The position numbers and the translations under genes are program-made. A DNA stretch of 51,839 nt. Source: Craspedostauros australis (taxonomy: Eukaryota). The notes beneath the pieces were generated by a model that saw nothing but the letters and a program-made list of their open reading frames with translations, was not told where the DNA came from and searched no databases. The first letter of the stretch is position 1. Each line of letters starts with the position of its first letter. The stretch is taken from the NCBI GenBank assembly GCA_030167865.1, contig JALAGF010000255.1, positions 1 through 51,839 of the forward strand. The letters run 5' to 3'. Of the stretch, positions 21,215 through 49,631 are shown in pieces.

Positions 21215-21499
21215 CGACAAACGCAAATCGAGAAATGGAGTTGTCCTTCTCACAATTTCAGTTTCGCAGCCCAACCAGGCCACGAAATAACCCAGCACAA
21301 GGACGCACAGCGGAACGCCGTGCATCCAAAAACAGGGTCATCTCCATCCAGACACTCGTCTAAGCACGCATCCTAGCACACACACCATACTGGTACGTAT
21401 ACTATTATACACGCCCTCACAGTAACAGCAACAATAACGATAACAGAAGCGACAACGAATACACACAAACATGACAGAGTGAGCGCAAAGGAAGCAGGC

Positions 21500-29437: not shown

Positions 29438-32400
29438 TCATTTGAGGCTACTGACGCTGTTGCTGCGCTTGTGCGATGACTTCATCCCACCAGGTTGCTT
29501 TCTCCAGAATTTGCCCTTGGGCGTTCCATTCGATTTCGGCGTGGTATCGATGGACCGACGATGATGGGAGGAAGACGTCGACAGGGTCGAGCTTATCATC
29601 TTCAACGATGCCGACAGCGTCGATCGTGCCTTGCGTAGCGATCCACGTTTCTTGTTGGTATCGGAGGGGTCGACCGTCGCGATTGGTGCGGGGGTCTTCT
29701 TCTTGCTGCTGTTTTTCGTTGGTGATGCCGTGATTTTAGCAGGCGCTTTCTTCAGCGATGACTTGCGTGGCACCTTCAAGGAGGTCATGGGCTTGGTCTT
29801 GCTGGAATCTTGGCTATGCACACCGATGCTGCTGTTGCTGTGATTGCCTTTGCTGTTCTTGGCATGAGCTCGGTCCTTTCTCAATTGATTGGATGCGGCA
29901 GAAGAAGACAACGATGGCAAAGATGTTCGGGTTTTGATACTTTGGCTGCCCGTCGAAGATATCGATGAGGATCGGATGGGTCCCTTCAGCAGAGAGGATG
30001 AAGGTGACGCTCCGGGCAATTTCAGAATAGATTTGGGAGTCGGCGGCGTGGAAATCGTCGGCATTTTCAGCATCTTCTTCTTGGACGACACTGGTGAGAT
30101 GATGGGCGATTTCAGATTCTCGCTCATCGAGTGCAACCGCGAGGTATACTTAATCCCCGTCGCTGGTTGGGCATTCTTGTTGTTCTGTTTGCTCTTGGTC
30201 TTGACCTTGGTCTTGCCCATGGTACTTGTGACATCGGCGGTGGTGCTGTTGCCGGTCTCGTCTGAAGCTGGATTTGGAGCCAGACCAGTTTCAGTTGCGG
30301 TAGCGGCGTCTGCAGCTATGGCTGGATCAGCACCTGCATTCATGTTTGCGTTCACGTTTACGCTTGCTTTTACATTGCTCTTGCTTGCGACGTTAGCATC
30401 GATGTTGGCACTCCCATCCACATCACTATTTTTCTTCAAATCCGGGCTCACTGCTGCTGACGTGGCGACCGAGGTTGAGGATTTGGGTTGTTGGAGAGGT
30501 TGCGGGAGACTCGATTTCCTTCTCATGGCAGAAGCTTTGGATCTCAGCGGCCCTTGTGTTCGCTTCTGGTCCTTGTCGCTTTCGGAAGAGTCGATGCTGC
30601 TGGCAGTGCTCTGCCGTTGTTGTCTAGCTCTCCAATGATCGTTGCTGTTCCGACGGCTATCCGTGATGCTGATATCTTCAGCGTCGAGATCTTCGTCGAT
30701 GTCGGTATCAGCATCATGACTGGCATTGTCTTTGTCTGTGAGCGCGCTCAGCAGGCTCAAGGTTGACATCCGCGGCGGTGGTACCTCGTCCAATATTTGC
30801 TGTGGCGGGAAATTTTGCGCCTCTACCTCCACCTTCGGCTGCGACTGTGACTGCGATTGTGCATGTGTATGTGGCTGCGCGTCTGCTAAGATAGTAGAGT
30901 TTGACGCAGATGCTCCCCAAGCGTTGGATTGAAATGTGTTTTGACCACTCGGTGGCTCAAGCTTGTTCCAAAGCTTGCCTGCTGCATTGGTACCGACGCC
31001 TTGAGAGGGCGTAGTTTGGACTGTCCGTAGGGGGTGGTCGGGTATTGCGCTTGGCAGCGCCAGTGGTAGCGACTGTCGCTGCGCAGCCGCTGCGTACGGT
31101 TGCGGTGGTGCAGGTGGTGGCTGCGGTGGCGTTTCGAGCATTGCGACAACAGGCGATATTTCCGTTAATTGCGGCACGGCAGCCGATCTCGTCATTTGGA
31201 TCGCCGTGGCTGTCATCGTCGTCGTCGTCGCCACGCTCGTCGTGATTGTCCCCATCGCAGTCGTTTTGGCGATATTGGTTGTGCGGAAGGTTACATTGGG
31301 ATTTGGCATCCTGGCTGCTGCAATGACGGCCCTTCGTGGTTGCGAGTTGTCCTCCCTCACTCCGTCCGGCTGTGAGTAGCCGTTGGATCGCTGCGATCTG
31401 GAGTGATTGCTGCTGAATTGCCGAACCGCCTGAGGTGCCATAGATACGGCAAACGGCCTTGTCGATCTGATCGGTGATCTGGCATGACCTGACAGACTCA
31501 GACGTGCTCGATTCTTCGAATGAGACTTGCTGTTTTCTGCCACCGGCTGCAACGGGCCTCCCATTGCAACAGTATTAACCTGCTGTGATGTGAGATCGAC
31601 TGTCCTTGTCTGCCTCATGGATTGCGACGCGGGCATGGATGATGTCAACGAGCGTGAGGGTTGCTGCTGGGCTTCTGAGGAATTGTTGCGAGCGACGCCA
31701 CGGATAGGAGTGCGGCTATGGTTCGATGCGCCAAGCGTTGCAGGACCAGGCGATAGCATGCGCGAACGGTCTCTGCGCAATGATCGCGAGCTGGCGGATC
31801 GGCTGTACGTCGGACGACCTCTCAAGGAATTCCTTGGGATGGACTGGTTCCGTGTGTGAGAAGATGACTGCATGCTGGACATGCTCCTCGTTTCATCGTC
31901 GTCGTGCGAAGATGATTTGTGGGTGTGCGATGACACTCTGTCTTCCTTGGTGATGATCCGCATGTTGTCGATCTGCGCCGTCGCACTCGTGGAAGATGCC
32001 GTCGTCGCCAACGTCCTGGCTGATCGGTTCGTGGCAAGGAAGCGTTCGCTGGACAAGGTGCTCCTCGAGGAACGCCGGCTTTCCGTCGCTTCCGGGTCCG
32101 GGATGGTGACGATGGCGGCACCTGACTCCGTGAGATCCGTGGTGCGACGCCCTCGCATCGAACGGAATGACTCGGTTCGCATCAACGACGCTCGTAGGTG
32201 GGACGAATGCGACGATCGCGCGGATTGGGCGGCAGAGTGTTCGTCGCGACCACGTGCTTTCGGGTCATGCCCTGACCAGTTGAGCGTATTGGGACCACCA
32301 CCCGCGGCATTTTTGTTCTTTGCGCGTTGGGCCTGGAAGAATGCCAAGTCCGAACGCATCTGCGTCCGCACCTGCTCTCTCCTGGCTTGTAAGCTGGCGA

Positions 32401-34987
32401 CCTCGGCAAGGACATGCGCGCGGACTTGGTTCTTCTTTTCGTTGAAGGATCCATCCTCGCGCTGCTGCTGTATGCGTCTCACACCGCGATCCATGGCGAC
32501 CGCGACCGCCTGTGTCATGGCCTGCGCCTTGATAGTTCGACGCTGGTGGACTGACTTGGTGACGTCCACATCCCGCGGCATCGATGTGTTGGCAGCGCGC
32601 GCCGTATCCTCCACTCGCACTGGATCTGCGATACGGACGCTACGATTCGTCGCCCACATCCGTTCTTCCCTCAACGCCTTCACTTGGGCCTCCAGCATAT
32701 CCATCCGTTTCATGGTCTCGAGACGTTCCTCCACCTGCTTGACAGCACCCATCACGGAGAATGCCTTGATCAGGGCATCACGTTCCTCCACTAACTCCTC
32801 CACACGTTTGTTGAGTATATTCACCTTCATCGTCATGAGATGATTCTCCCGTCTCAACTCCTCCATCTCTTCTTCATCGTCCTCGAGGTCCCCGCCTGTT
32901 GATTCGTCGTCATCCATGCTGATGTCCACGCTGTATCCCATGTTGTCACTTGGGGCGATGGAGACATCACCGATATCATCATCGTCGTCATCAGCCAGTT
33001 CATAACTTCCGTCGTGGATGAGATCATTCAATGGAATCTCTTTGGACTGATCGTCCATTTCATCCGCCAGCTCCTCGTCTTCATCCTCGTCAGTGTTGCT
33101 GCCGCTGCCTGTACTGGCGCTACTGTTATTGCTGCCACTGCGGCTAACGCTGTTGCTACCGCTGCTGCTGCTTTGGTCATTCTCATCTTCTTCCATGATA
33201 TCATCCAAGTGATCATCGTGCAAATCATCATGCAAATCATCGGAGCTGTCATCGTTGTCTTCCTCATCTCCTTCCATGATATCATCCAAAAACTCATCAT
33301 TAACTTCGTCATCCTCTTCTTCGGACGTGTATTGCAACGCGAGTTCCTCGTCGCTGTAATCGCTGTCGGACTTGGTGGGATTGAAAGTATCGTCGTCGCT
33401 CGACACGTACTGCGGCGGCTGCGGCACGCTGTCGGATCCGGTCGACACATCGTGGCCGCTGTCATCATCGAGGAGCATGTCGCTGCTGATGGAATCGTCG
33501 AACCGATCCTCCATGAAGTCATCTCGCTCGCGTGACGCGCGTGACACCTGCATGGCCAACGTGAGGGCGACGCGACACATGTCGACGGGGTTCTGCTTGA
33601 GCACGATATCCATGGCCGATCCGCGCACCGACGTGCCGAAGGCCAGGAACAGCGCGATGGCACCATCCGTCGTGATGCGGTTGTCCTGCAAATTCAATTC
33701 CTGCAGCTGCGACGACGTCGCCGCGTCGCCCAAGCGACCCATGGCCGTGGCGCAGTCATTCTCCATAGCGTTCCTTGAAAGATCCAATCGTTCCAAGTGG
33801 CTGCGGCCCGTGCGGATGGTCTGCACGAGGATCTGCATGCGATCGGCGTCGAGGCCTATATTTTCCAATTTGAGGTACCGCAATCCGCTGAGGATACGCA
33901 GGGCGCCGCACAGGCCGCGGTCGGCAAAGTCCATGTCCGACAGCACGGGGCTGCCGGCAAAGACGATGGACTTGAGCTGCTTCTTGCCGTTGCGATGCAT
34001 CTTTGTGGCCAATTCGAGCAAGCCGGCGCATGGCAGACGCGTGGAGATGACGGATCGGCGTCGGCTGCGGCCGGAGCTGCTGCGGCGCGATTGGCTGTCA
34101 TCGTCCGTGTCGTTGCCATTCGCGTGCGTGAGAGTGACGGCGCCGAGGTGGGTCCATTGCAGCGTTTCCAAATTCTCGCATCGTGACAGGAAGCGGTTGG
34201 CGGATTGCACGGCGTGGGACACGGCGAGGGCGTCGATCTGGTTGCTCAATGAGAAATACTGCAGGGATGCGGCGGAAATCTGCTCCTGAAACGTGACGTC
34301 CATCATGATGAGACTGCGCGGATCGAGGTGGACGTTCTCCAGGATGAGCTTGCGGAAGCGCTGCTGCTGACCCAGGCATTTCCAGACCGTGAAGGGCAGG
34401 ATGTTGTGCGACAAATCCAGGACCTCCACGGGGCTATTAGCATAGACCGAGACGAGATGATTGAGAGTGTCCTCGTCTGTTTTGGGTGGCGGGACGCCAG
34501 CGAATTCATCCATGTCGGGCAGGGCGACGATATCATGCATCGTGACGCTCCAAACGTCGCGTGCGTGGTCGGCCAGGAAGATGGTGAAGCATTCCAGAGC
34601 ATCCATTTCGAATCTGAGCCCTCGCATGGAGATGACGTCCACGACGAGATTGGGAATGCGTTGCAGAGAGCGGAATTCCCGAGCAAAGGCGTCCACCATC
34701 GTGAGCGCCGTCTGCTTGTCGACCATGCTGGGCAACGTGATGGTGATCGTGGCCCTCGCAAAGTTTCGTCTGCGATGGAAGGAGGAGGACATGGCATGGT
34801 GGTGGTGGTTGCTGTGCGTGCTGCTGTCGTGGTCGCGAGTGTGCTGCCGCCGATGATGGCTGATCTCGGTGGCAGCAATGTCATCGCCCTCCGTCGTCGC
34901 TATCCTCGTGTTGCAGGTGGGCGGTGTGCCATCTTGGTGATTCCCAATGATCTCGACGGTCACGGGCATCTCAAATGGCTGGACCAT
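29438..34987 (-). CDS. RNI-like/RanGAP-like leucine-rich repeat protein with acidic tract, coiled coil and long disordered tail (1849 aa)
   Basis: Single long ORF. LRRs include VEVLDLSHN, LRYLKLENIGL, LERLDLSRNAMENDCA and LQELNLQDNRITTDGA. These are followed by a D/E-rich tract, a heptad-like segment (EELRRENHLM..EELVEERDAL) and an S/R/K-rich tail. Confidence 0.8.
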   Translation of the reverse strand: MVQPFEMPVTVEIIGNHQDGTPPTCNTRIATTEGDDIAATEISHHRRQHTRDHDSSTHSNHHHHAMSSSFHRRRNFARATITITLPSMVDKQTALTMVDAFAREFRSLQRIPNLVVDVISMRGLRFEMDALECFTIFLADHARDVWSVTMHDIVALPDMDEFAGVPPPKTDEDTLNHLVSVYANSPVEVLDLSHNILPFTVWKCLGQQQRFRKLILENVHLDPRSLIMMDVTFQEQISAASLQYFSLSNQIDALAVSHAVQSANRFLSRCENLETLQWTHLGAVTLTHANGNDTDDDSQSRRSSSGRSRRRSVISTRLPCAGLLELATKMHRNGKKQLKSIVFAGSPVLSDMDFADRGLCGALRILSGLRYLKLENIGLDADRMQILVQTIRTGRSHLERLDLSRNAMENDCATAMGRLGDAATSSQLQELNLQDNRITTDGAIALFLAFGTSVRGSAMDIVLKQNPVDMCRVALTLAMQVSRASRERDDFMEDRFDDSISSDMLLDDDSGHDVSTGSDSVPQPPQYVSSDDDTFNPTKSDSDYSDEELALQYTSEEEDDEVNDEFLDDIMEGDEEDNDDSSDDLHDDLHDDHLDDIMEEDENDQSSSSGSNSVSRSGSNNSSASTGSGSNTDEDEDEELADEMDDQSKEIPLNDLIHDGSYELADDDDDDIGDVSIAPSDNMGYSVDISMDDDESTGGDLEDDEEEMEELRRENHLMTMKVNILNKRVEELVEERDALIKAFSVMGAVKQVEERLETMKRMDMLEAQVKALREERMWATNRSVRIADPVRVEDTARAANTSMPRDVDVTKSVHQRRTIKAQAMTQAVAVAMDRGVRRIQQQREDGSFNEKKNQVRAHVLAEVASLQARREQVRTQMRSDLAFFQAQRAKNKNAAGGGPNTLNWSGHDPKARGRDEHSAAQSARSSHSSHLRASLMRTESFRSMRGRRTTDLTESGAAIVTIPDPEATESRRSSRSTLSSERFLATNRSARTLATTASSTSATAQIDNMRIITKEDRVSSHTHKSSSHDDDETRSMSSMQSSSHTRNQSIPRNSLRGRPTYSRSASSRSLRRDRSRMLSPGPATLGASNHSRTPIRGVARNNSSEAQQQPSRSLTSSMPASQSMRQTRTVDLTSQQVNTVAMGGPLQPVAENSKSHSKNRARLSLSGHARSPIRSTRPFAVSMAPQAVRQFSSNHSRSQRSNGYSQPDGVREDNSQPRRAVIAAARMPNPNVTFRTTNIAKTTAMGTITTSVATTTTMTATAIQMTRSAAVPQLTEISPVVAMLETPPQPPPAPPQPYAAAAQRQSLPLALPSAIPDHPLRTVQTTPSQGVGTNAAGKLWNKLEPPSGQNTFQSNAWGASASNSTILADAQPHTHAQSQSQSQPKVEVEAQNFPPQQILDEVPPPRMSTLSLLSALTDKDNASHDADTDIDEDLDAEDISITDSRRNSNDHWRARQQRQSTASSIDSSESDKDQKRTQGPLRSKASAMRRKSSLPQPLQQPKSSTSVATSAAVSPDLKKNSDVDGSANIDANVASKSNVKASVNVNANMNAGADPAIAADAATATETGLAPNPASDETGNSTTADVTSTMGKTKVKTKSKQNNKNAQPATGIKYTSRLHSMSENLKSPIISPVSSKKKMLKMPTISTPPTPKSILKLPGASPSSSLLKGPIRSSSISSTGSQSIKTRTSLPSLSSSAASNQLRKDRAHAKNSKGNHSNSSIGVHSQDSSKTKPMTSLKVPRKSSLKKAPAKITASPTKNSSKKKTPAPIATVDPSDTNKKRGSLRKARSTLSASLKMISSTLSTSSSHHRRSIDTTPKSNGTPKGKFWRKQPGGMKSSHKRSNSVSSLK

Positions 34988-37040
34988 GCTGCCATCTCCC
35001 GATGATCAGCGATGGAGCCGTTGCGTCAGTTCGTTTGTTGCGTCTGTTGCGTCGATTGGCGTCTGTTGCGTTGGTTGGGTATTAGAGAACGATAGACACT
35101 CGTGCTCAGCGAGGTGGTGTGCGTTGTGATATCAGTGATGCTGGTGCTCTGAGTTGTGTTGTCCTCTTTTTCTGTATACTCAAGTCAGAGAGAGAGAGAG
35201 CAATGCTATTCCGAGTGCGGGTTGCCGATGGATGGTGGTGGTCTGGGACGCTGCCTTTCGCTACAACTCCGCCTCTCTTTGATATTCCGTCTCTTAATAG
35301 AATACTATACTATACTTGACAGAAGTATCGCACTTGTCGGGTATGAGTGCGTACTCGTATGTATTGTATAGCAATATAATGTAAAAATACAATAGTATGT
35401 ATGGTGTGGAGAGTTTGCAATGTGATGGAGAAATGTTGATGAAATGAAGTGAAGTGAAAAGACGTCTGCTGCGTTGGGTTGTGATGTGATGTGTTGTTTC
35501 GTCTTGTGGTGTTTCGTGTTGTGCTATGTGAAATCGAATGGAAAGTAATGACGGTTGGCGCGGTCCGATGACGTCCGTTTGGCTGGGCTCGTCCCTTGTC
35601 CCTCGTCACCTTGGCGGGCTGGCAGGCTGGCACGGTTTGCGCTGCTTCAGTGGCGGAGAGAGATGGTCGTGGTGTTGGTCGTGATGATGGTTGCGACGAC
35701 GATCTCCTCCACGTTCAATGTGGGCGCAATTCGAGTGCAATGCAATTTGATGGGATAGGATGAGTAGCCTCGTTCTTCTGATTTTTGTGGCTGATGATGT
35801 TGATTCACCGTGGACGTGTTTATCGGTAATGGAGACAACTCCGCCCTTGTGTGATGGGAGTCGTTGGCTCGGTCTTTGGTTTTGGTCGTGATGCCAAGAC
35901 TGTTACTCCGAGATGGCAACACAACACAAAACCGGTTCCAACAGAGAGGGTGGGAGGTGAAGCAGAGAGAGAGACACAAAAGCCAGAGATGCGGCAGCAG
36001 ATGTCGGTGTCAATTTCAATGCGGATGTCTGCCACCAGATTTCAAAGGCCTGCCAACCAAGATGGAGTACGAATCCTTCCTTGGTCGACCACAGAGTGCC
36101 GGTATCGGTATTGTTGGGTGACGCTTGTTGATGATGGCGCAGAGTGATGCTTCACGCAAGTGGGGAGGACTGCCTCTCTCTCTGTTGATGATGTTGAGCG
36201 CGATACGGCGGTCTCCAATGCTCAAACTGGTGCACTCTTGCATGGTAGTACACGTATTACAAGAGCCAGAGTAACAATTGCGAAGGTCGGTATAGACAGC
36301 TTCGAAACATCAATCCAGACCAATCATTTCTCTGGACTCTCTCTCCCAAGACACGAGAGGGGTGGACGGCTCCTTCTCGTCGTTGTCCATGTCCATGATG
36401 GTGGCGCCTCGACAGTTGATGGACGCACAACAACACAAGAGAGATGACTTGGTGACACATGGAACGAGCCAGAGAGTGAGGACGTGTGACGACTTCTCTC
36501 CCTTCCCCGTGTATTTGTACCCCTGGGTGGTTACTTGTTTCTTTGCGCCGCTGTCACCATCGTTGTGGCCGCCATTTTGCCGCCATTTTGCCTTCCATCT
36601 GTCTTGTGCCCCTCTCGCGCGTATTCGAAGTTGTGTGAGACTTTTTCACCCACCGTTCGGATAAATCCATATCACGTGTGACGTCATCAGTACCTCGAAA
36701 TCCACAACGGTTCAGTCGCTTCCGATGATTCGCCGGACAAGGCAATGCGGGCGTCTTTCAACACGCTTTGGCAGACGACTCATCCGACCATACGCAACAA
36801 CAAAAACAAAGAACAACGCACAAACGCAGAATGCAACGAAAACGAACACACACAGCGAAAGGATCGACCATGGCGACGGCAGTGATGACAACAGGGGCAA
36901 CCACGATGACCGCAACGGCTCTTTGCCAACGTTGATGGTTCACAGATACTCGCCCAAAAACCGCGGCAGGCGCGACATACTACACCCAATCATCAGTGTC
37001 AACATCAGCATTGTTCATTCCATTGACCCACTGCCCAAAC

Positions 37041-37670: not shown

Positions 37671-39304
37671 GGAGGCAAGAGAATAGTGGTGTTTGGTAGC
37701 GTACAGTACCATAGCTCGTCAAGCATAATAGCACTCTACTATAGTATTCGACTCTCCTCGACTATATTCAATTCCATTCCCTTGTTCCGTTGCGCATGGC
37801 GTACTGCCCTGCGAGAATGTGTGTGAACAGGATACACATGCGCAAAGCTTCGGGCACGGATCGGCTAATTTCGGCCACCACATCGAACACCTGGAGCGGG
37901 AATTCAAAATTTGAACAGTATTGCTGCATGTGCTCGGACGCAGACATTCTGATACATCCAAGTTTGTTAGCGAATTCAATACCGATCGCAACGCACGGTG
38001 ACATTCCATTGGATTGGGTGCCTGGCGCCAAACAGCAAGGTGTTGGCGTTTTGGACGAAGCCGACGATGCAGATACGGAAGGAACATGAGTATGACGCAG
38101 CTTCCAAGCAGATTGAGAGCAACGTTTGCATGCCGCATCAGTGGCGACGGACCATGAGTAAGGCCTCATGTTGCCGCAGCAGATGAATCTACTCCATTCT
38201 CCAATGGATCATGGCACTTGTTGTATGTGACTGTTTTCACACACAATCACGATTGCTCTTGGGCCCTCTCCAAAGAGAGAGCGGAATGCTTCGAGGTCAA
38301 CCACGACCAAATGGCAGAGATGCTTTGCGCTTCCGTGACAACAACCCCTCCGATCCTTGCGGAATGACGGCATCATCTCCCACTGGGGTAGATCGTTCAG
38401 TGAGAGAACAGGATTGCCTTCACTGAAGCAATTGGCACGATCCATCACTGACGAATACTCTTCGCATCATGTCGGCGGACTTGATGCCCAAAAAGTGTTA
38501 CCCACATACATTTCCCATGACCACTTGCCAAGAACGCAACCAAGAGCACAAAATTCGTTCTTTGCACCCATTCATACCGCCGCACTCCATTCTCTGTGGC
38601 GGGATGCGAGCCAGAACAAGGCGGCATGGAGTGGAGAGGGACATCCAGGATACCGATGGCACTGTTAGCACGACAAGGGGGACATTTGCCGAAATTTGTG
38701 GATGTCATCGCAAAATGTGAGCGCGGTGTGACCTCGTGTGTTTCGTTTATGTACATATTCCGACACGGATATATTCAATGGTCATTAATGTGACAGCGCG
38801 CCCAGGATCTCACATTTTCTGTCCGTTCCTATTCTTGGAAAATGCGCAAGTTTGCATGTCACGCTGTCACGCTTTCATGCCGAATCCATCAATGGAGACA
38901 AACAGAAAAGGAGAGGAAGCGGCATCCTTGACCTCTGCAATTGCCGCCGCGAAGTAAAGAACAAGGCGTACTCGTACGACCCAGTGTGGAGAGCAGAGCG
39001 AAAGTGGAGGGGGACTGGAGGGAGGTCGGAGGGAGAGCGACAGGAGATCAAAGCAGAAAAGAGCACAGCACAGCAGAAAAGAGAAGAGAAACGAAAGACG
39101 CGATCTGTTGGCGGCATCATGATCGATCGGTCATAGTGCGAAACCCATTGCAATCGATTGGAAGGAAGGTCTCTTCTTCTCTCTCTTTGCTCCCTCCAAC
39201 TTGCTTCATCTGCATAGTACCACGTTGCGTTGCAAGGTCCGAGCAAGATGATGACAACGACACCAAATAGATGCAACGAAACGATTGGGCACCGAGCGCG
39301 CAGG

Positions 39305-42300
39305 ATGAGCATCCTCGTGTTGATCCTGTGCCTGCATGGATGCTCGGCCACCATGATATTCCGCAATCGCATGATGCGCTGGTCCGAAGCCGAGCCTGAA
39401 GTGCAGAAGCACAAGCATGCAGGTCTGCGGCGACGAGATGCAATTGGGCGGCTGGAAGCGGAGGACGATGTCGATGTCGAGGAATACGACGATGAAGACG
39501 ATGAAGACGATGATGATGACTACGACTACGACAGTGATGATGATGAAGATAGTGATGATGGTGACGATGATGGTGATGACGATGATGGTGATGACGATGA
39601 TGAAGACAGTGATGACGATGACGACGACGATGATGATAGCAACGACAACGACGATAGCGACGACGACAGCGATGACGACGACAGCGATGACAGCGATAGC
39701 GACGATCATGATCGTACGCATGCCACCGCCACACATCGCAGAATAAGGCGTTCCACTTCCTTCGACGAATTTGCTCATGTGAGGACGAAGTCGAATCACG
39801 GTGCCGCCACCTACGAAAGGGCGGAACTGTTGGTTGAATCCAAGTCTCTCGGACGTGTGCCAACGTCCCAGCCGACCTACGATCCCATCGATCCCGTGGA
39901 CCTCAACCCAACAACATCCTTCGACGAGACGGAGACGCCGACCACCGGTCCGACCAGAAGGCCAACCTCATCGCCGACCTCATCGCCGACCGCCAATCCA
40001 ACATTGCGACCGACGAGGATCCCAACCTCATCGCCAACTCACATTCCGACAATAACACCAGTTCCATCGGATGACACTGAAAGCCCAACTGGATCTGACA
40101 CGGCCAGTCCGACCTCGCTGGACGACACAGCCAGTCCTACTTCGCCGGGCGACACCGTCAGTCCGACCTCGTTGGATGATACGGCCAGTCCTACTTCGCC
40201 GGGCGACACCGTCAGTCCGACCTCGATGGATGATACGGCCAGTCCAACTTCGCTAGACGACACGGCTAGCCCCACCTCCTTGGATGACACAGCCAGTCCT
40301 ACTTCGCCGGGCGACACCGTCAGTCCGACAGCGATGCCAACGATGGACGACACCATGCCAGTCACCCTCATGCCGACGCACGAATCCGCGCCGACGGCTG
40401 ATCCGCACACCAATGCACCCACCGAAGGTGAATGCGTCGGCAAAGGCAAAGGCAAGGGCAAAGGCAAGGGTAGCAAGAGTTCCAAGACGTCGAAGACTTC
40501 CAAGAGTGACAAAGGCAAGGGCAAAGGCAAGGGAAGCAAGAGCCCAAAGAGTGATGGCAAAGGAAAAGGCAAGGGTAGCAAGAGCTCGAAGAGTGGTGAT
40601 GGCAAAGGCAAGGGGAGCAAAGGCTCGAAGAGTGGTGATGGTAAAGGCAAAGGCAAAGGCAGCAAGAGCCCCAACAGCGATTCTGGCAAAGGCAAGGGGA
40701 GCAAGAGTTCCAAAAGCGATTCTGACGAAGGAAAAGGAAAAGGTAAAGGCAGCAAGACTTCCAAGAGCGATTCTGGCAAGGGAAAAGGCAAGGGCAAGGG
40801 CAGCAAAAGCTCGACAAGTGATGAAGGCAAAGGCAAAGGCGAGTGTGTGGAGCCCAGCGAAGACGGCAAGGGAAGCAAGAGCTCGAAGAGTGATGATGGC
40901 AAAGGCAAAGGCAAAGGTAGCAAGAGCTCGAAGAGTGATGATGGCAAAGGAAAAGGCAAAGGAAGCAAGAGCTCCAAGAGCGACTCTGGAAAGGGCAAAG
41001 GTAAGGGCGACAGTGACGGTAAAGGTGACTCGGGAAAAGGCAAGGGCAAAGGCAACGACGGTAAAGGAAGCAAGAGCCCGAAGAGCGATGATGGCAAAGG
41101 CAAGGGTAAGGGCGACAGTGACGATGGAAAGGGAAAAGGTAAAACAAGCAAGGGGAGCAAGAGCAGCAAGAGTTCCGACGATGGGAAAGGTGGCAAGGGT
41201 TACGACGCACCAAGTGCCACCAATTCACCCAGCGGCAAAGGGTACCAGGGCAAATACCCCTACAACTTTACGAAATCCAGCAAATCCTTTAAAGGTGCCA
41301 AGCACTACAAGGAAGACGAGAACGCGTATTTGTACCGAACCCACAGCCCAACCTTGTCACCCTTCGCGAACGGCGGAGATGAGGCCAACGCGATCACAGA
41401 TGGCAATTCGGCCAACGCAACCGAAGACATTATGCCTTCGCCTGCGCCCAGCACCTTAGCCATCGATACTATGACCAGCGGACCTACAGGGCAGACTGAC
41501 GCAGATGAGGGCAACGAGAATGTCGACCTTGGGTCGCATGCACCATCACTCCCTCCAACACGATCACCCTCGAAATCACCAACAGGTTCACCGTCTCGGA
41601 TTCCAACGGGGTCGCCCACCAAAAGACCGACCAGGCTTCCATCCGTATCACCCACCGTATTGCCGACCGTCCTTGCGTCCCTTTCGCCCACAGGCCGGCC
41701 CACCTCAAGACCAACCAGGGACATCACGATCGAGCGCAACACAGATTCCACGAAGCGGCCATCCGGCTCGCCAGTGGCAAGGCCAACAAGGAGCCCATCG
41801 CGACGGCCATCGTTCGATTCCACCAAGAGACCAACGGCGCGCCCAAACGTGGAACCAACGGACAATCCAACCAGACGTCCGAACGTTGAGCCGACAGAGA
41901 ATCCAACAAGACGTCCGAACGTGGAACCAACAGACAATCCAACCAGACGTCCGAACGTTGAGCCGACAGACAATCCAACAATACGTCCGAACGTGGAACC
42001 AACAGACAATCCAACCAGACGTCCGAACGTTGAGCCGACAGAGAATCCAACAACACGTCCGAACGTTGAGCCGACAGAACGCCCAACGGCACGACCAAAT
42101 GTTGGCTCGACCAGCAGTCCAACGCAATCCATGTCGGCCACGCCGACCAGAACACCGTCGGCTGATTCCTCAGAGACGCCAACAGGCACGCCTGTCATAG
42201 TTTCAGCAGCACCAAGCACTACACCTAGCACTGAACCAAGTACGGCGCCAAGCACTGAGCCAACAAGTCTTCCGACAGGGTCACCAACCTCCATACCGAC

Positions 42301-44048
42301 GGAAGCACCATCATCTACGCCGACGACATTGGCTCCAACGAACCTTCCCTTCATATGCGAAGCATTGCCAGCCGACGAGGCGTTGAAAGAAACATTGAAT
42401 GACATCACACCTGAAACTCTCCTCGATGACCTCGACACTCCGCAAGGTCAGGCATTCGATTGGATGGTGTCGAATGATTTGGGGTCGGGCTTCGTCGACC
42501 CATGCACGTATGAAACGCTGAAGCAGCGATATGCGCTGATAACCCTCTTCTTTGCAACCGACGGGAACGGTTGGTCGGAAAGCCAGGGGTGGTTGACCAG
42601 CATCCCAGAGTGTAGTTGGGCGCTTCTTACCTGTGTCAATGGCAATGTGACATCATTGGATTTGGGTAAGTGGAGAAACTGAACTGGTACCATGTGCTGC
42701 GATGGAACTTGCGAGGTGTTCGTGTGCTGTAATGCCTGCCTTGTGAAGTTGTTATTCAATCAGAGCAATGCTCGATGTTGTGGGTCGCAGCCGTCAAACA
42801 TTGAGACAGTAAAAGTTGCTCTGCTCTATTTGCCATGCATTCTCGTCTGAGAACGGAGTGTCTCACCCCATTGCTTCCACTTCTGGCTTCGCACACGCTT
42901 TCCATAATACACAACATGGGCGAGCCCATACCATACCTGCACCACGCACAATCCACACACACTCTCTCTATATATACTCGTATATACACATGTGCACTAC
43001 CTATCAAACAGACCAAAACAACCTCGATGGCTCCATCCCAGATGAGCTCCAGGTGCTGGATATGATCGCCGAGCTCAACCTTTCCAACAATACGCTCAAG
43101 GGCACCATCTCATCTTTCCTCCCAAGCCTCGCGGGCCTCCAAACGTACGATGTCGCCTTCAACCAACTGACCGGCACCATCCCCACATTCTTGGGCGCCT
43201 TCTCAAATCTCCAAGAGCTCTCGCTCAACAACAACCAGCTCACGATGACAATTCCAACGCAGATCGGAAATGCGAAGGCCTTGGTGACGCTGCAATTGGA
43301 CGATAATCTCTTGACCGGTGCGATCCCGTCCGAGCTTGGCCAATTGAGCGATACTCTGACGACGCTGTCAGTTGGGATCAACGACCTCAGAGGAGCCATC
43401 CCTCTCGAGTTGTACGACCTGACGTCTTTGATGGAAATGGTGCTGGAGGGCAACAGATTAACTGGCATCATCAGCACCAGCGTTGGCGATTTGGTAAGCC
43501 TGACGACCCTCGATCTTTCCAACAATCAGCTCGGTGGCAATCTGCCCATCACTCTGGGCAGGTTATCCAATCTGGTCACATTGGACTTGGCAAGCAACGA
43601 TCTCATGGGAACGCTCCGGGATACTTTCGCTCCCTTCACCCAGCTGGAGACGATCGACCTGTCATCCAACGAGATCCAGGGTCCGCTGCCATCACGGCTG
43701 TTCGATTTGCCCAACATCCAGACCATCCTCCTGGACAGGAACAGGTTCGATGGCGTCATTCCGGAAAATCTTGGCAATGCGGAGCAGCTTCAGCAGCTCT
43801 TGCTGTCCTTCAACCTTCTTTCAGGAAACGTACCGGAAATCGACATTGGCAGTTTGGCGCAGCTGCAGAGCATCGAGCTGCGGAATAACCAGCTGACAGG
43901 AAGCATGGCGGCATCCATCTGCCGTCTGCGATCTCCTCGCTTTGGATCCTTGACCGAGCTGACATCGGACTGCTCCGGTCTGGCAAACCCTCGCATCGAT
44001 TGCGACCTGCCATCCTGTTGCACGGCATGCTTTCCACTGCGTGTGTAA
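39305..44048 (+). CDS. Secreted mosaic protein: signal peptide, poly-Asp tract, Pro/Thr/Ser repeats, Lys/Gly/Ser tract, LRR N-cap and plant-type LRR domain; 2 exons (39305-42665, 43012-44048)
   Basis: Hydrophobic N-terminus MSILVLILCLHGCSA (alternative ATG at 39248). N-cap TPQGQAFDWM..QRYALITLFFATDG..W..GWL..ECSW..C. Intron G|GTAAGT (42666)..ACAG| (43011) joins in phase to give SLDLDQNNLDGSIP. About 12 LxLxxNxLxGxIP repeats and a Cys-rich C-cap (CCTACF). Confidence 0.9.
39461..39712 (+). repeat. Coding GAT/GAC-rich low-complexity tract (about 80 aa, mostly Asp with Ser/Glu)
   Basis: EDDVDVEEYDDEDDEDDDDD..DDSDSDDHD. Confidence 0.9.
40070..40335 (+). repeat. Coding 27-nt tandem repeat, about 10 units (DDTASPTS[L/P], GDTVSPTS)
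   Basis: Visible in both DNA and translation. Confidence 0.9.
40439..41202 (+). repeat. Coding GKGKG / KSSKSD degenerate repeat region
   Basis: Repeated ggcaaaggcaaggg and agcaagagctcgaagagtgatg units. Confidence 0.9.
41837..42103 (+). repeat. Coding 36-nt tandem repeat, about 7 units (RPNVEPT[D/E]NPT[R/I/T])
   Basis: Contiguous units with no spacers. Confidence 0.9.
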
Positions 44049-44803
44049 GTACAAGTACGGTAGGCAGTCTGTGCTCGATGCACACGCACGAACGCACGAG
44101 CGCAGCACAACACAACATGGTGCACGTCGAGATGGGAGAGGTCGATGTTCGAACCAAGGGAAAACGGATCGGGCCTTGCCTCAAAGTCAGCAGCGTGCAC
44201 ACCCACACACACTGTGTACATATCCACATTGATTGAGCAATGATTACGTGAACGAAGCACTACTCTATACATGTTTGCATTTTATACCTCCTTCTCTCCA
44301 CGCGTACAAGTACGAGTAGGGGGATGGCTATTATTCTATTAAGTTTCATTTTCCATACCAAGGCGACTGCTTCGTGGCAAAGAAAAATACCGACCCATGC
44401 GGATGAGAATCAGGCGTAGCCATCGCCATTGCTATGATACAGCAAACCATGAGCGAGACCACTGGCCGCCGTTGCGCACATACTCATGGCAACCACCGAA
44501 GCCCTGACGCTGTTTTCATTGATCAAATTGAAATATTCATGGTTTAGTATTTACTGTTGTATTGGAGTGTCTGGTGCTGGCACGTCCTCGTACGGCATTA
44601 CTCTATCACGGCCATTCTTTTTTCTTTGGCAGTCGTCGTGACAACAGCAGAGACACGGAGGATGCCCTTTCCCAATGCACCTGCTGTCCACGACCATTCT
44701 TCTTTTGTCTTTCTTGTTGTTCTCGATCCCCTCTCCTTCTCCCCCACAAAGATGGGGAGCGTCATGCAAATGGTGGCATGTTATCATACAATGCACGCTT
44801 CAC

Positions 44804-47182
44804 TTAGCGTTCGGCAATCTTGCGGTACTTCAATGCCAAGTAGGCCATGTAGCGTGGCACGACGCCCAGCACGATGAGCATGCCGATATGGAACCCGAGC
44901 GTCGCTTCGACGTCCAGGAATTCCAACAAGTCATCCTTGGCTACGATGGTGCCGACGCCACCTGCGCATAGATCTTGCAGGTTGCCGCTGCCATCGCATC
45001 GCATGTCGCGGTCGAAAATGACGAAACGGGAGGCGTCGAAGGCGTACTTGAACGGGCTGAGGTACTTGGCCCATTCAACGAAAGCCGGAATATTCTCAAC
45101 GTAGAATCCTCCCATGAGCATGGTGGTCAAGGTGAGGACGGTGGCGATGGTCAAGGCACGGTCCATGCGGTCGATGGAGGCTCCGATGAGAAGTCCCATC
45201 GACTCTCCGGCCACGACGGACAGGAGGGAGATCAGCGTGCTGGACAGAAAGACCGTGAACTTGGAGCTGATGCCGGCCATCCAGAAGGAGATGATCATGT
45301 AGAGGGTTGGCAGGATGAGTCGCGTGGGAGCTTCGCTGGTCGTCTTGGCAAGGAAGTAGGCGCTGAGGTGGTAGGACGAGCTGGCACGCTCCTTGGCGAT
45401 GATGGCCTTCTCCATGGGGAACGCCATGAGGGCGCCGAACATACTGTCGAAGACCCAGTAGGTCATCGTGAAGAAGATGTAGGACGAGCGGTCGTGGACC
45501 GTCTCCTCCGTGTAGTCCAATCGAAACCACAACAGACCGGCAACAATACCAAGCACTGCGGACTTGATGAGGTTGAGGGGCGTGAAGATGGCCGTTCTGG
45601 AGTTCTTCATGGCGCGGTGCGTGAGGACGCGGTACTGGGTCATCCAGCTCGTGCCGTACTTGGATCCCTCCATGCCGGATCCCGAAGCTCCGTGGTCGGA
45701 GGCTCCGAGGGTGGATTCCCGCTTGGGCTCGTTCTGCACCTGGTCTTCGATCTGCTTGGAGACGACTTCGCCATCCCATGCAGCGATGAGCAGGTCGCGG
45801 TTGGTGACACCGGCGAGGTCGGTCGAGGCGGACTTTTGGGTGCTTTCGCGCGATCCGGCACCCACGTTGGAGCCCTTCTTGCGACGGCGCAGCGTCGCGC
45901 CCTGGTTCTCCTCGTCGTTGTCGTTGTTGCTGCCTTCCTCGCTTTGGTTGGGCGAGTCATTTTCGTCGAAGGTGGTGGTGACGAGGAAGGGGTTGGTGCC
46001 GTTGGCCTCCTCATCGACCTCGTCAGTGTTGTCGGCGACGAGCAGATCCATCCAGTGGTCGGCGAGGTTGTATCCCTCGGGGCATGCCATGCCTTGGTCC
46101 TTGAGGTAGGGGATGGACTTTTGCGGCGTGCCGAAGTAGACCACGTTTCCCGATGCCATCATGAGCAAGCGGTCGAAGCTGAGGAAGAGGCCCGAGCTGG
46201 GCTGGTGGATGCTGACGATGACCGTCTTGCGCTGGTAACGTGCCAGATTCTGCAGGATCTTGACCAGCGCGACGGCGTTGGTGGAGTCGAGCCCGGAGGT
46301 CGGCTCATCCAGCAGGAGGCAGGATGGGTTGGTGAGGAGCTCCGTGCCGATGTTGACGCGCTTCCTCTCTCCGCCGCTGAGCATTCCGATGGGAGAGTTC
46401 TGTACCTTGGTGAGGCGCAGCAGGCGGATGATGTTGTCCACCTTGTCGAGCTTCTGCTGCCTCGCCCATTCTTGCGGCAGACGCAGGAAGGCCGTGTAGG
46501 CGAGCTGGTCGCGCACGCTGAGGTCGTTGAAGAAGATATCCTGCTGTCGGACGTAGGCTACCTGCGAGACGAACCGCTTCATGGCGCTGCTGGAGTTGGA
46601 CACCGGGCGGCCATTGACGGAGATGACTCCGCTCTCCAACGAGAGGCGGCCGCTGAGGGCGTTGAGCAGGGTGGTCTTGCCACTTCCGGACGGGCCCAAA
46701 AGCGCCAGCACCTCACCTGGGGCCGCGAAGGCGGAAACCTGGTTGAGAATGACCTTGGAGGTCGGACCGGCCGAGGAGCGTCTGCCACCGGGGGCGTCGC
46801 CACCATCTTCGGCCTTCGCGGGACCTGCGATGGAGCTCCTCATGAGACCCGCCTGGTTGTCCTGCACCATCACGACCTTCTTCAATCGGCTCCAGCGCAG
46901 GATGATTGACGAATCTGGTGCTCCAGCGGCAGTCTCCGGTGCTGCAGCGGGGCCCTTGTTGGATGCCTCGTCGCTTGGGGCCGCGTCCGGGACGGCACGG
47001 TTCGATGCCTGCACCGGAATGACATCATCATGGTTGGTGGACCCAAAGATGATCTCTTCTTCTTGCACGGTGCCCACAATGTTCCCCAGGCCTTCGCTGT
47101 GTCGGATCTCGAGATCTTCGCCATCAGTGTGGGTGCTGATGTCGGCATTGGGGCTTGCGTCTTCCTCCATCGTTGAACTCAT
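44804..47182 (-). CDS. ABCG (White-type) half ABC transporter, NBD-TMD, intronless
   Basis: Walker A GPSGSGKTT, signature LSGGERKRV, Walker B LLLDEPTSGLD, H-loop SIHQP, CPEGYNLADH, KERASSSY, C-terminal TM helices. Likely ATG at 47182. Confidence 0.95.
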   Translation of the reverse strand: MSSTMEEDASPNADISTHTDGEDLEIRHSEGLGNIVGTVQEEEIIFGSTNHDDVIPVQASNRAVPDAAPSDEASNKGPAAAPETAAGAPDSSIILRWSRLKKVVMVQDNQAGLMRSSIAGPAKAEDGGDAPGGRRSSAGPTSKVILNQVSAFAAPGEVLALLGPSGSGKTTLLNALSGRLSLESGVISVNGRPVSNSSSAMKRFVSQVAYVRQQDIFFNDLSVRDQLAYTAFLRLPQEWARQQKLDKVDNIIRLLRLTKVQNSPIGMLSGGERKRVNIGTELLTNPSCLLLDEPTSGLDSTNAVALVKILQNLARYQRKTVIVSIHQPSSGLFLSFDRLLMMASGNVVYFGTPQKSIPYLKDQGMACPEGYNLADHWMDLLVADNTDEVDEEANGTNPFLVTTTFDENDSPNQSEEGSNNDNDEENQGATLRRRKKGSNVGAGSRESTQKSASTDLAGVTNRDLLIAAWDGEVVSKQIEDQVQNEPKRESTLGASDHGASGSGMEGSKYGTSWMTQYRVLTHRAMKNSRTAIFTPLNLIKSAVLGIVAGLLWFRLDYTEETVHDRSSYIFFTMTYWVFDSMFGALMAFPMEKAIIAKERASSSYHLSAYFLAKTTSEAPTRLILPTLYMIISFWMAGISSKFTVFLSSTLISLLSVVAGESMGLLIGASIDRMDRALTIATVLTLTTMLMGGFYVENIPAFVEWAKYLSPFKYAFDASRFVIFDRDMRCDGSGNLQDLCAGGVGTIVAKDDLLEFLDVEATLGFHIGMLIVLGVVPRYMAYLALKYRKIAER

Positions 47183-49631
47183 CTTGTCAGACCTTCGTTT
47201 GATTGTTTGTTTGATTGTTTGATTGCTTGTGATGTTGAGTGGTTGAGTGAGTGTTGGTTGGGTGAGTGAGTTTGTGCACGGAGGCAATCGTATTGGTATG
47301 GTAGATCGTTCTGGCACGGGCTACGAGTGTGTGCGATTCAGAAAGCGTCGTTGTTGTTGCTTCTGCGATTGTGGTTGTGATCGGTGATGGGCGCAAGGCG
47401 AATTCGGTGGATGCAACTCTGGTGATGTGAGGAATCAATGAGAAAGACAAGTTGAACACAGGCAAATCGTGGAGCCCCGTTGCCGTGGTGAGTTGTACGC
47501 GGGCCTGTGCACGATTGAGGGCACTTGGTTGGTGTTTGGACGATCGTGGGGTGACGGAGATGGTAATGACCCTGTTGTGACTGCGGCTTCTCTCGTCTTT
47601 CTCCTCTTTCCTTCTCTCTCCTCGGCACGTGGAGGTTTCGTGCAGAGGTTGGCGCGACAAGGCCACGCAAGAGCTCTTTCGGACGCTCCTGGCTTCGTTC
47701 TTGTCCGGATGCGTGTGCGACTTGCTTGGATGCAAGTATCACGCAACAGCGGGCCGCTCTCTGTTCCTCTCTGTTGCGTGTGGCACATCGCTTGTGTGCT
47801 GCAGAGTACGGTATTTCGCTTTCTGTGCGTGCCTGTTGGGCGCAGCGACAGTGGAATGGGGGTGGTGGTTACGGGAAGCACAAGTATTCTACGAACTGCA
47901 CGATCGCAAGGGAGCACAAGAGCGTTGCATGCGCCCACATCGATGGGAAGAAGAACGTCTTTCCTGTTCCATGAGCGTGATGTGGACCGTGCAACAACAG
48001 AGCAGTTCCTACCGCTGACTTGGTGTGAAGGACTTTCTGTTGCGTGGTATTAGGGTACTAGAGGACTCTTCGCACTCTATTTCCGACAACTTTGTTGTCG
48101 TGGATTGTTTTGGCGCGCAAAGTCAAACACTTGCAAGCCGTGCCAAGCTGTTGACATGGTGAGCAACTGAAGGGCCTTTTGTCGAGTTCGTTTTGGGCAG
48201 CGGCTTCCTTACCTACTCCCCACGCTCGTCCATCATGTTTTGGTGAGTCATTTGACAAAGTCACATGCAACGAAACCGCCATGTCAACTTCGCATCGAGT
48301 TTGTCATTGGCGGGATTGCTGTTCTTGCAAGCCAGAGTTAGCCAGAGTATACATGTACAAAACTAGAGATGGATGTGCTGCTCAGAACTTGGTATCGACG
48401 CCTCTCGTTCAATGGCGCCCAAACATGGTGGCCCCAAGGTGTTGTGGTGAGCACTGCTCGTAGCTCGCAGAGTGGTACAACGTCGTCGAGCAGAGAGGCT
48501 CGATTGACAAACGAGTTGAAAATAGGGCAGAGTAAAGCCTTCTGCTCACAATGAGTCTGGTCACAACAGGTGTACTTGCAGCACCGGCCACTGTTGCAGA
48601 AGTGGGTGCATTTTGTGTCAAGTCACCATGATTCTCGTCTTCGACAGTCGCTGTCATTTGAGGTCCTCCACGCAGTGGCCTCTATGGTCCTTTTTCGCGC
48701 GCTGTGGTACCGACACTCAACTCTATTCTATTCCACTCTGCAATACACAGTATATTATGCCACACTATATTTTACAATATGTAGTCGTATGTGTACTCGT
48801 AGCTGTGGCCGTCTTGGCTCCAGCACAGTGAAGTATGACTACTCACAATCGAAGACGTTTTGCAAGATCCAAGAGAGTTGGACCGGGAGTTGCGGTGATC
48901 TATTCATTCGTGCCACAATTATCCAGGTGAAACCGTTAAAATGGTGTTACGATGCGAACACGGGTGTCGCTTGCTAATATGAGCAACCAACATTGGAGCA
49001 AAGCAATGCATGCGTACGATTCGATAAGCCTCATAATCTGCATCTGTATGGCTTTGCCACCTCTGTTTTGGGTTTCATGCGTGTATTGACTTGAAATGAT
49101 TCCAACACAACACAACAGGACAGGTAACTTAGAGAAGGGAAATGAGCACTTGCGCAAAAATGTCTCCACCACCTCGATTCGACCGGCTACAATCAGAACA
49201 GAAGTCCGCCTAGATCCATGCCTGTTCCAAGCGATACAGAGAGTGCTTGCGCGCTCACCACCCATTATCATCCCGTCACACACACGCCGAATGGTGAATG
49301 TGGACAGCGTGTGTTATGCATGCGCTGCCTGCGGAGTATGGCGGTGACCAAACTGTTCAATCAGAAGTATCATACTGGAAATAGATAGCAAAGCAAGGCA
49401 CGTTTGAGACAAAGAGTACCCGTGCGAGCTGCTCGAAGAGTTTCTTGCGTCACGCTAGTTGACTGTTTTCTGTTTATCGCACGAATTCTTTTGGGACCGC
49501 TCCTGGTCCGAATTCATGAAGGTCAAAGCTCTGGACGAGATGTGTGGTGGAGATGGACGTGCCGGGTCTGATGCCTGTATATTCGCATTGAGTGAAACTC
49601 AGCAGGGTGTCATCGCTTGAGTTTCTCCTTC

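Follow-up and report, generated by a model that had tools for sequence, protein, structure and literature searches.

The contig JALAGF010000255.1 of Craspedostauros australis (assembly GCA_030167865.1), analysed here over its positions 1 to 51,839 (the window), carries at 39305..44048 of the forward strand a gene for a protein of 1465 residues, in which highly charged low-complexity blocks precede a leucine-rich repeat (LRR) domain. We propose that the product is a secreted cell-surface LRR glycoprotein of this raphid pennate diatom, composed of an anchor held in the wall or frustule, a stalk and a binding head, a reading to which we assign a probability of roughly 45%. Comparison with its homologues shows that the gene is no one-off: it belongs to a large family that has been little studied, and is unusually expanded for a member of it.

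The open reading frame scan detected two forward frames at the locus, 39218-42682 and 42813-44048. These form a gene of two exons (39305-42665 and 43012-44048), running from an ATG at 39305 to a stop at 44046-44048, with identical coordinates to those of the single spliced gene of an original prediction made from the bare sequence. The joined coding sequence comprises 4398 nucleotides (nt) without internal stops. The ATG at 39305 is the first one followed by a hydrophobic stretch, and another in-frame ATG upstream, at 39248, adds only an Arg-containing n-region. The intron (42666-43011, 346 nt, GTAAGT...CAG, phase 1) has GT..AG borders; exon 1 ends at 42665 in ...TTG GAT TTG G|gtaagt, and a pyrimidine-rich tract followed by CAG closes the intron at 43011. 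Without splicing, exon 1 reads through into GKWRN and stops at 42680-42682. Splicing at 42665|43012 keeps the reading in frame and restores a canonical repeat, ...NVTSLDL|DQNNLDGSIPDEL. The spliced product aligns with a transcript-derived protein of Cylindrotheca fusiformis (P0364) in one high-scoring segment pair, residues 995-1461 against 74-558 (38% identity, E 5e-86), which is ungapped at the splice junction (residue 1120/1121). The N-terminal cap (N-cap), the LRRs and the C-terminal cap (C-cap) also lie on one chain in P0320 (45% identity over the last 274 residues, E 6e-72) and P0388 of Nitzschia inconspicua, and likewise in P0344 and P0392. The locus is thus predicted to be one two-exon gene, a model backed by homology.

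That exon 1, with its stop at 42680-42682, and the LRR frame are separate genes wrongly joined is very improbable. Such a mis-join would fit a 1351-nt contig of run X1 (kind guessed as RNA), which begins at 43011 and covers only exon 2 and the 3' end, and also the fact that the entries of 47 of the 68 family members described below end no more than 45 residues past their N-cap match. These truncated entries, however, often end in an intron-like "GK..." read-through, which suggests that the position of the intron is shared and that it is uncrossable for prokaryote-style gene callers, and the transcript-derived or annotated homologues P0364, P0344, P0320 and P0392 are continuous at the same point. 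Moreover, LRR 1 is split by the intron, which lies right behind its first LxL strand, in line with the family position as indicated indirectly by the 47 entry ends, and it is complete only after splicing; structurally, neither an N-cap lacking LRRs nor LRRs lacking a signal peptide would make sense. The run X1 contig matches 43011-44300 with 0 differences, extends 61 nt beyond, and defines a 3' untranslated region of at least 250 nt (44049..44300). Over exon 1 and the intron run X1 yields only two 20-nt repeat matches, and no weight is placed on it for expression or for the join.

The protein contains, in this order, a hydrophobic N-terminus, a poly-Asp block, a stalk rich in Pro and Thr (P/T), a block rich in Lys, Gly and Ser (K/G/S), a Tyr/Lys segment, a second P/T stalk, the N-cap, the LRRs and the C-cap. 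The block order, the signal-like N-terminus and the absence of any other transmembrane (TM) segment, all of which had been read from the sequence in the original prediction, agree with composition and hydropathy. The first 16 residues (39305..39352) resemble a signal peptide, with the h-region ILVLILCL (residues 3-10) and the putative cleavage site C-S-A|T. Kyte-Doolittle hydropathy in 19-residue windows peaks at residue 1 (2.13) and exceeds 1.2 only in windows beginning at residues 1-3, and there is no further hydrophobic segment in the 1465 residues at this cut-off. The secretion signal was judged by hydropathy, by the small residues at -3/-1 and by the homologues, which is a heuristic; on this basis the product looks secreted and without a membrane anchor. 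A glycosylphosphatidylinositol anchor was ruled out, as the hydrophobic C-terminal tail is absent. Plastid targeting was rejected as well: the ASAFAP-type plastid motif has an aromatic residue or Leu at +1, and the residue past the predicted cut is Thr. The sole multibasic run of the protein, LRRR (residues 41-44, 39425..39436), is followed by an acidic and aliphatic stretch. It may be a diverged counterpart of the LRRKR motif of the family and a possible kexin-type propeptide site, although LRRRD is found here about 25 residues past the predicted cleavage site and the family motif directly behind the signal peptide.

The poly-Asp block (residues 51-135, 39455..39709) contains 66% Asp, 11% Ser and 9% Glu, with a net charge of -64. 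The first stalk, rich in Pro, Thr and Ser (residues 186-376, 39860..40432), is encoded by 27/54-nt repeats that give (D)DTASPTS(P/L)(G)DTVSPTS. The K/G/S block that follows (264 residues, 377-640; 40433..41224) is composed of 30% Lys, 28% Gly, 23% Ser and 10% Asp, carries a net charge of +46 and is made of units resembling GKGKGKGSKSSKSDD. A GECV motif is found at its start and in its middle (40433-40444 and 40844-40855), which provide Cys 377 and Cys 514; no other cysteine occurs from the end of the signal peptide to the N-cap, and the two could form a loop or cross-link chains to one another. A 761-nt contig of run X1 shares only 20-nt words with the K/G/S block (40445-40464, 40562-40582), and its loose end consists of more K/G/S-type codons, which hints that other genes with similar lysine-rich repeats are expressed in the organism sequenced. 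The Tyr/Lys segment (residues 641-684, 41225..41356) has 44 residues, among them six Tyr, seven Lys and no Trp, and occupies the place where homologues have a hydrophobic Met/Ser-rich "MSMSMP" junction. The second stalk, rich in Pro, Thr, Ser and Arg (residues 745-1007, 41537..42325), is encoded by 36/72-nt repeats that give RPNVEPT(D/E)NPT(R); it matches the Pfam PT repeat (E 4.6e-07) and includes a tandem repeat at 41846-42078 with 95% matches at period 72. All the low-complexity blocks are underlain by tandem DNA repeats whose copies match at 67-100% and whose periods are triplet-based (GAC/GAT) in the acidic block, 27/54 nt in stalk 1, 39-45 nt in the K/G/S block and 36/72 nt in stalk 2, which points to evolutionarily young expansions. 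Minus-strand open frames over the repeats (for instance 40039-41199, "PLPLP...") were discarded as mirror images of these repeats.

The C-terminal part of the protein is a predicted solenoid of 13 plant-type LRRs flanked by disulfide-type Cys caps. Both the folded LRR and the mucin-like P/T stalks of the original prediction were recovered. The N-cap, together with the first β-strand (LDL) of LRR 1 (residues 1008-1120, 42326..42665), contains four conserved Cys, each of them kept in 8-9 of nine aligned sequences. The repeats, each of 24 residues, extend over residues 1115-1428; repeat 1 begins in exon 1, and the part of the solenoid encoded by exon 2 (43012..43934) is of the plant-specific LxxLxLxxNxLxGxIP type. 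Twelve repeats were counted by regular expression and one was read in register; Pfam matches LRR_1 (E 1.7e-29) and LRR_8 (E 1.6e-24), in addition to LRR_4 and LRR_14. The C-cap, which ends with the stop codon (residues 1421-1465, 43911..44048), has six Cys (...DC...C...CCxxC...), all conserved in nine of nine aligned full-length relatives, and no hydrophobic tail. A sequence search of the PDB found plant MIK2 as the best match (E 3.1e-127), then GSO1, FLS2 and PEPR1 (down to 3.2e-91), and also the pollen LRX structure 6qwn (E 2.1e-29); these scores sum over repeats and indicate the repeat class, not orthology. Searches with the LRR domain in a set of 5.8 billion proteins, directed at proteins of similar as well as of greater length, gave no self match and none above 50% identity, and they were swamped by bacterial and plant proteins with many repeats, which makes them unhelpful for orthology.

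The family was instead defined by an exhaustive HMMER search with the 113-residue N-cap, which retrieved 4412 representative proteins at E<=0.001, 568 at <=1e-10 and nine at <=1e-30, with many single-copy matches of 43-56% identity over nearly the whole query. The N-cap pattern of about 110 residues and four Cys, C...TPQG.A..W...DPC...QRYAL..L.F.T.G..W....GWL....EC.W..V.C, is found in the protein described here. A set of 68 members, many of them fragments, was composed of proteins with exactly one N-cap match of at least 85 residues and more than 60 residues upstream of it, leaving aside those with partial (~45-residue) bacterial-type caps or with several caps. The members with a named organism, N. 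inconspicua, C. fusiformis and Grammatophora oceanica (3 of 20 clusters), are all pennate diatoms. The common plan comprises a signal peptide, the motif xLRRKRxx[LV]xI[DE]D, a variable region that is often rich in Lys, Ser, Gly or Ala, the MSMSMP junction, a P/T/S/A stalk, the N-cap, the LRRs and the C-cap. An initial Met with a hydrophobic N-terminus is present in 48 of the 68, and an R[RK]xR motif within the first 130 residues in 32, or in 25 of the 48 with complete N-termini, mostly as xLRRKRxx[LV]xI[DE]D (seen in P0291, P0298, P0301, P0312, P0318, P0325, P0340, P0367 and others). This LRRKR motif has the look of a propeptide or sorting signal of the kexin/furin type and differs from the RXL site of silica proteins. 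The Met/Ser-rich junction ("...FSMSMSMP...") separates the K-rich region from the P/T stalk, for example in P0273, P0291, P0301, P0310 and P0312, and at least two of its words occur in 31 of 99 single-hit proteins, a wider set. Six of nine long members end in the same Cys cap without a hydrophobic window; the remaining three (P0367, P0378 and P0038) are truncated or have a different end. No second copy of the N-cap or the K/G/S block was found elsewhere in the window, and the K/G/S block had no usable match in the ESM Atlas.

Silaffins proper are recognised biochemically, by a tight association with biosilica, polyamine-modified lysines, phosphoserines and the capacity to precipitate silica, and silaffin-like response genes by co-expression with sil3 or by induction upon Si resupply or in valve synthesis. 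Silaffins have no sequence homology among themselves (bioRxiv 10.1101/2021.09.18.460806), and the K/G/S block was compared with them through the motifs used in published screens. A pentalysine cluster consists of five non-consecutive lysines in 12-14 residues, expressed as K..K..K.{1,2}K..K, and this strict expression is found in 29% of soluble silica-proteome proteins versus 1.5% in background proteomes (bioRxiv 10.1101/2021.09.18.460806). A lysine-enriched region (LER) requires two or more K(X)2K motifs with a separation of at most four residues; a screen for a signal peptide, no TM segment and an LER or UM motif led to two proteins being tested, both of which localised to the frustule (PMC9650480). 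The silaffin-like protein (SFLP) screen combines a signal peptide with repeated K[SG][SG]K; its ten new proteins all have RXL, and P/T repeats accompany KXXK in 14 silaffin-like proteins, including TpSIL1 (PMC5501833). The protein described here has a predicted signal peptide and no TM segment by the hydropathy heuristic, as the silaffin-like class demands. Its 33 KxxK motifs are all within residues 388-666, 29 of them in the K/G/S block, and bear out the earlier description of this block as a long one with many such motifs. There are 23 K[SG][SG]K, of which eight consecutive pairs overlap and two pairs are 1-6 residues apart, the spacing used in the SFLP screen. The protein contains 12 LERs, 11 of them in the K/G/S block, and a pentalysine scan, proposed with the original prediction, gave three strict matches, at residues 388 and 391 (K/G/S block) and 657 (Tyr/Lys segment). 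Serine and lysine make up 25-28% and 29-32% of 100-200-residue windows, respectively. The predicted protein passes the published in-silico screens for silaffin-like proteins, although its membership in this class is compositional only. Adjacent lysines never occur in the 264 residues of the block (0 KK dipeptides versus ~22.7 expected), and what is non-random in it is the composition and the strict spacing of lysines, not the number of KxxK.

Two further likenesses considered for the charged segments did not survive the comparison. Cingulins are described as alternating KXXK-rich and W- or Y-rich domains; here a single, short Tyr segment (44 residues, six Tyr and no Trp) was found, with one Trp in the first 1000 residues and no KXXK-W/Y alternation, so that a cingulin-type likeness was abandoned. 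Silacidins derive from a repetitive precursor, which is processed into Ser-rich phosphopeptides that also contain Asp and Glu and have numerous phosphorylatable serines (PMC4557024). The acidic D/S/E block of the original prediction is as strongly acidic as claimed, but it is a poly-Asp block with only 11% Ser, no RXL is present, and a comparable acidic stretch (at least 12 Asp or Glu in 20 residues) occurs in only one of the 68 members, P0298, being absent from the other 67; the term "silacidin-like" was dropped.

Lysine clusters are spread through the family. At least one LER is found in 28 of the 68 members and at least one loose pentalysine window in 27, and either of them upstream of the N-cap in 31; in 29 of these 31, the cluster is N-terminal to the window richest in P/T/S/A. 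The strict pentalysine expression matches 8 of 68 members versus 6 of 335 other stored proteins, and the six (P0146, P0162, P0395, P0399, P0403 and P0404) are all either relatives of diatom type or cluster mates of family members. Of the 335, which are mostly bacterial and plant LRR proteins and usually longer, 29 have an LER or a loose cluster. A K-rich span exists in 35 of the 68 members; it reaches 318 residues in this gene versus 210 in the longest homologue. These comparisons make the fusion to LRRs, and a lysine-rich module ahead of a P/T stalk, traits of the family, and the size of the K/G/S block and the poly-Asp block appear to be peculiar to this gene. The lysine cluster would then be a positional trait of the family, which supports an anchoring role.

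The source being a diatom, a silica-related reading is admissible, and the elements described above can be placed in the following scheme. The protein would be imported into the endoplasmic reticulum and then possibly trimmed by a kexin-type protease at LRRR. The lysine-cluster block, with three pentalysine clusters, 12 LERs and a net charge of +46, would hold the N-terminal end in the wall. This block would be zwitterionic if its serines were phosphorylated, and may bind biosilica or the polyanionic organic casing a role played in Thalassiosira pseudonana by the pentalysine clusters and LERs of silaffins and cingulins. Both stalks, which are probably O-glycosylated, would serve as extended spacers, and the C-terminal LRR solenoid would face outwards as a ligand-binding head for partners, microbes or the substratum. 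For the poly-Asp block, the most plausible role is to neutralise the polycation or pair with it, in transport or in the wall, an arrangement that resembles the acidic N-terminal domain of Sil1p. The chain contains no RXL and probably stays intact.

Several points weigh against this wall-anchored reading. The proposed link to silica or to the wall is drawn solely from composition and from the anatomy of the family. The 29 KxxK motifs of the K/G/S block compare with 22.7 ± 3.3 in composition-preserving shuffles, 77 of 2000 of which reach 29, and its two strict clusters with 1.01 ± 1.22 (525 of 2000 reach two); with counts so near to those of the shuffles, the motifs largely follow composition and may be a by-product of a K/G/S minisatellite. 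RXL, which is reported in silaffins, cingulins, silacidins and all ten new KXXK proteins, is absent (0 R.L matches in 1465 residues). The lysine cluster is missing in 37 of the 68 members (many of them fragments), which indicates that an anchoring role is not universal. The experiments on silica targeting were performed in a centric diatom, whereas the family is documented here from pennates only. Finally, LRRs are unmentioned in the main text, supplements apart, of the three-species silica-proteome preprint.

The composition of the blocks also invites a reading in which they have no function of their own. The protein would be an LRR receptor-like or recognition protein whose function lies in the N-cap/LRR/C-cap head, acting with a membrane co-receptor in mating or in microbe or stress sensing, and the poly-Asp, K/G/S and P/T blocks would be functionally neutral, fast-evolving minisatellite spacers. 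This agrees with the tandem DNA repeats in all the blocks and their 67-100% matches between copies, with the acidic block being found in one of 68 homologues and the K-rich span exceeding the next longest by so much, with motif counts near the composition expectation, and with the fact that the head alone is alignable between species. In addition, the pennate plant-type LRR proteins MRM2 and MRP2 have been implicated in mating-type recognition (bioRxiv 10.1101/2024.04.15.589526, PMC6261938). However, the MRM2-type proteins are TM-anchored and this family has no TM segment; 31 of 68 members have K-rich segments in the same place, nearly always before the stalk, which drift alone hardly explains; and adjacent lysines are entirely avoided in the K/G/S block. 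We consider the neutral-spacer explanation doubtful and place it third, behind the wall anchor and the extracellular-matrix role discussed below.

A true biosilica-forming scaffold, the stronger reading of the original prediction, in which the paired polyanion and polycation blocks precipitate silica inside the silica deposition vesicle and the LRR provides positioning, is improbable. The charges of -64 and +46 in one chain and the silaffin-like content of Ser and Lys speak for it, and Sil1p also joins an acidic domain to basic repeats (PMC4557024). A polyanion and a polycation in one precursor are thus not new, being already known from C. fusiformis Sil1p. The scaffold is opposed by the lack of an RXL processing site, by an acidic block that is Asp-rich, Ser-poor and nearly confined to this protein, by 10% Asp inside the K/G/S block and, as for the anchor, by the silence of the silica-proteome main text on LRR proteins; many polycations precipitate silica in vitro, and a positive result would be unspecific.

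The same anatomy, in which long P/T stalks go with a signal peptide and the lack of an anchor, would also suit a secreted component of the mucilage, adhesive or extracellular polymeric substances that is not embedded in the wall. In this reading, polyanionic polysaccharides or surfaces would be the targets of the K/G/S block and the Tyr/Lys segment, the stalks would lend the protein a mucin-like character and the LRR would cross-link matrix partners. A neighbouring gene has its nearest named relatives in benthic raphid diatoms, and LRR proteins are the commonest predicted secreted class in Nitzschia putrida, for which attachment and environmental signalling were suggested (PMC9054022). Against this, neither "LRR" nor "leucine-rich" occurs in the main text, supplements apart, of the adhesive-trail preprint, the Tyr/Lys segment is short (44 residues, six Tyr), and matrix binding and silica binding are indistinguishable from the present evidence. 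We rank this alternative second to the wall-anchored protein, and hold it to be unlikely.

Among known systems, the closest to the wall-anchored protein proposed here are the two N. inconspicua relatives KAG7369106.1 and KAG7348403.1 (P0320 and P0388), which share with it the hydrophobic N-terminus, a P/T/S stalk, the four-Cys N-cap, plant-type LRRs, the six-Cys C-cap and the lack of a TM segment; besides the C-terminal similarity given above, the identity is 40% over the end of the stalk and the N-cap. They differ in being 699 and 719 residues long, with no poly-Asp, a single stalk and no LRRKR-like motif detected by regular expression, and their short K/S segment has two LERs and measures tens, not hundreds, of residues. 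Their database name, "RHS repeat-associated core domain containing protein", misfits the sequence and looks spurious.

The silaffin-like proteins and cingulins of T. pseudonana (CinW2, CinY2, Tp12162, Tp5357 and TpSil1-4) likewise have a signal peptide, no TM segment and K-(S/G)2-K clusters, and the LER examples in Table 1 of PMC9650480 contain the same KSSK and KGSK words as the K/G/S block. Unlike them, the protein described here has no RXL, no alternating W/Y domains, a (GK)n component, 10% Asp in the block and a folded LRR. Sil1p of C. fusiformis, as described in PMC4557024, combines a signal peptide, an acidic N-terminal domain and strongly basic repeats in one precursor, but it has 265 residues, is cut at RXL-type sites into peptides and lacks stalks and LRRs.

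The LRR head has its own set of relatives. Plant LRX proteins (6qwn) also consist of a secreted LRR head of the same type and a long Pro-rich, glycosylated region that anchors it in the wall. In LRX proteins the LRR is N-terminal and the extensin domain, with its SP3-5 motifs, is C-terminal, an order that is reversed in the C. australis protein, where the anchor would be N-terminal and 0 SPPP(P) extensin motifs are present. The LRX anchor is a Tyr-cross-linked extensin, and the one proposed here would consist of lysine clusters, an analogy and not a case of membership. MRM2 and MRP2 of pennate diatoms, which are mating-type-biased TM proteins (bioRxiv 10.1101/2024.04.15.589526, PMC6261938), share the NxLxGxIP repeat type, an extracellular LRR and the restriction to diatoms or pennates; they have a TM helix, whereas the family has none and carries N-terminal low-complexity modules instead. 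For a "plant-specific" class of diatom LRR proteins the preprint cites Schulze et al. 2015, and LRR genes are reported to be tandemly expanded in Seminavis robusta. The ectodomains of plant LRR receptor kinases (MIK2, GSO1, FLS2, PEPR1) share the 24-residue plant-type repeats and the Cys caps, but the protein described here has neither TM segment nor kinase and far fewer repeats (13).

Plant-type LRR proteins are abundant in diatoms, and lysine clusters target proteins to biosilica. Lysine-cluster silaffin-like proteins and diatom plant-type LRR proteins are each already known, and this gene and its family join both. No paper joining diatom, leucine-rich repeat and silaffin was found; LRRs are unmentioned in the diatom silica papers among the matches listed; the papers found for diatom leucine-rich repeat and frustule are by title not about wall proteins, the terms being unrelated in the relevant passages of PMC9054022; and biosilica proteome with leucine-rich in diatoms yields nothing related. 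The claim that the architecture is undescribed holds in so far as neither the LRR/silaffin-like fusion nor the family plan (LRRKR motif, N-cap, C-cap and conserved intron) was found in this literature, although the supplements of the silica-proteome and adhesive-trail preprints could hold such entries; it fails in that the protein is not a singleton but follows a common plan of secreted diatom LRR proteins.

A broader and more tentative proposal, which we think rather less probable than the anchoring of this one protein, is that pennates possess an undescribed class of frustule-anchored LRR receptors or adhesins, with a lysine-cluster module, P/T stalks and a plant-type LRR head, of which this gene would be the most extreme and in which LRRKR would be a propeptide or sorting signal. 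The lysine module would sometimes be paired with an acidic block, and the class, although a doubtful one at present, would by analogy be the silica-wall counterpart of plant LRX. Anchoring of the lysine module in the wall would show how a glass-enclosed cell displays recognition or adhesion domains, and such proteins would be natural modular scaffolds for display on silica. Even if the blocks were neutral, the result would be a clean definition of a large diatom-specific family of secreted LRR proteins whose database annotation is poor, "RHS repeat-associated" being one example.

Regarding the neighbouring genes, the one whose relatives were mentioned above encodes an SLC13/DASS sodium-coupled anion symporter (21377-23404, forward strand; Pfam Na_sulph_symp, E 1.4e-66), whose best named matches are in Seminavis robusta (65% identity) and Nitzschia sp. 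Nitz4 (54% and 50%), followed by at most 43% in bacteria and animals, which places the window among raphid pennate diatoms. An ABCG-type half transporter (44804-47320, reverse strand; ABC_tran and ABC2_membrane) is convergent with the LRR gene, their stops being about 750 nt apart, and it matches only generic ABCG clusters in the ESM Atlas. A 1855-residue open frame on the reverse strand (29438-35005) has as its sole Pfam match one ribonuclease-inhibitor-type LRR_6 (E 7.9e-07), an LRR class other than that of the gene described here. Other Pfam assignments are a 1284-residue AAA_16 ATPase-domain protein (9826-13680), a RING-finger protein (15014-15973) and a GT2 glycosyltransferase (24737-25648) on the forward strand, and a rhodanese-domain protein (13934-14794) on the reverse strand. 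Of 14 long open reading frames scanned, six have no Pfam family. The window is gene-dense and its exons are long.

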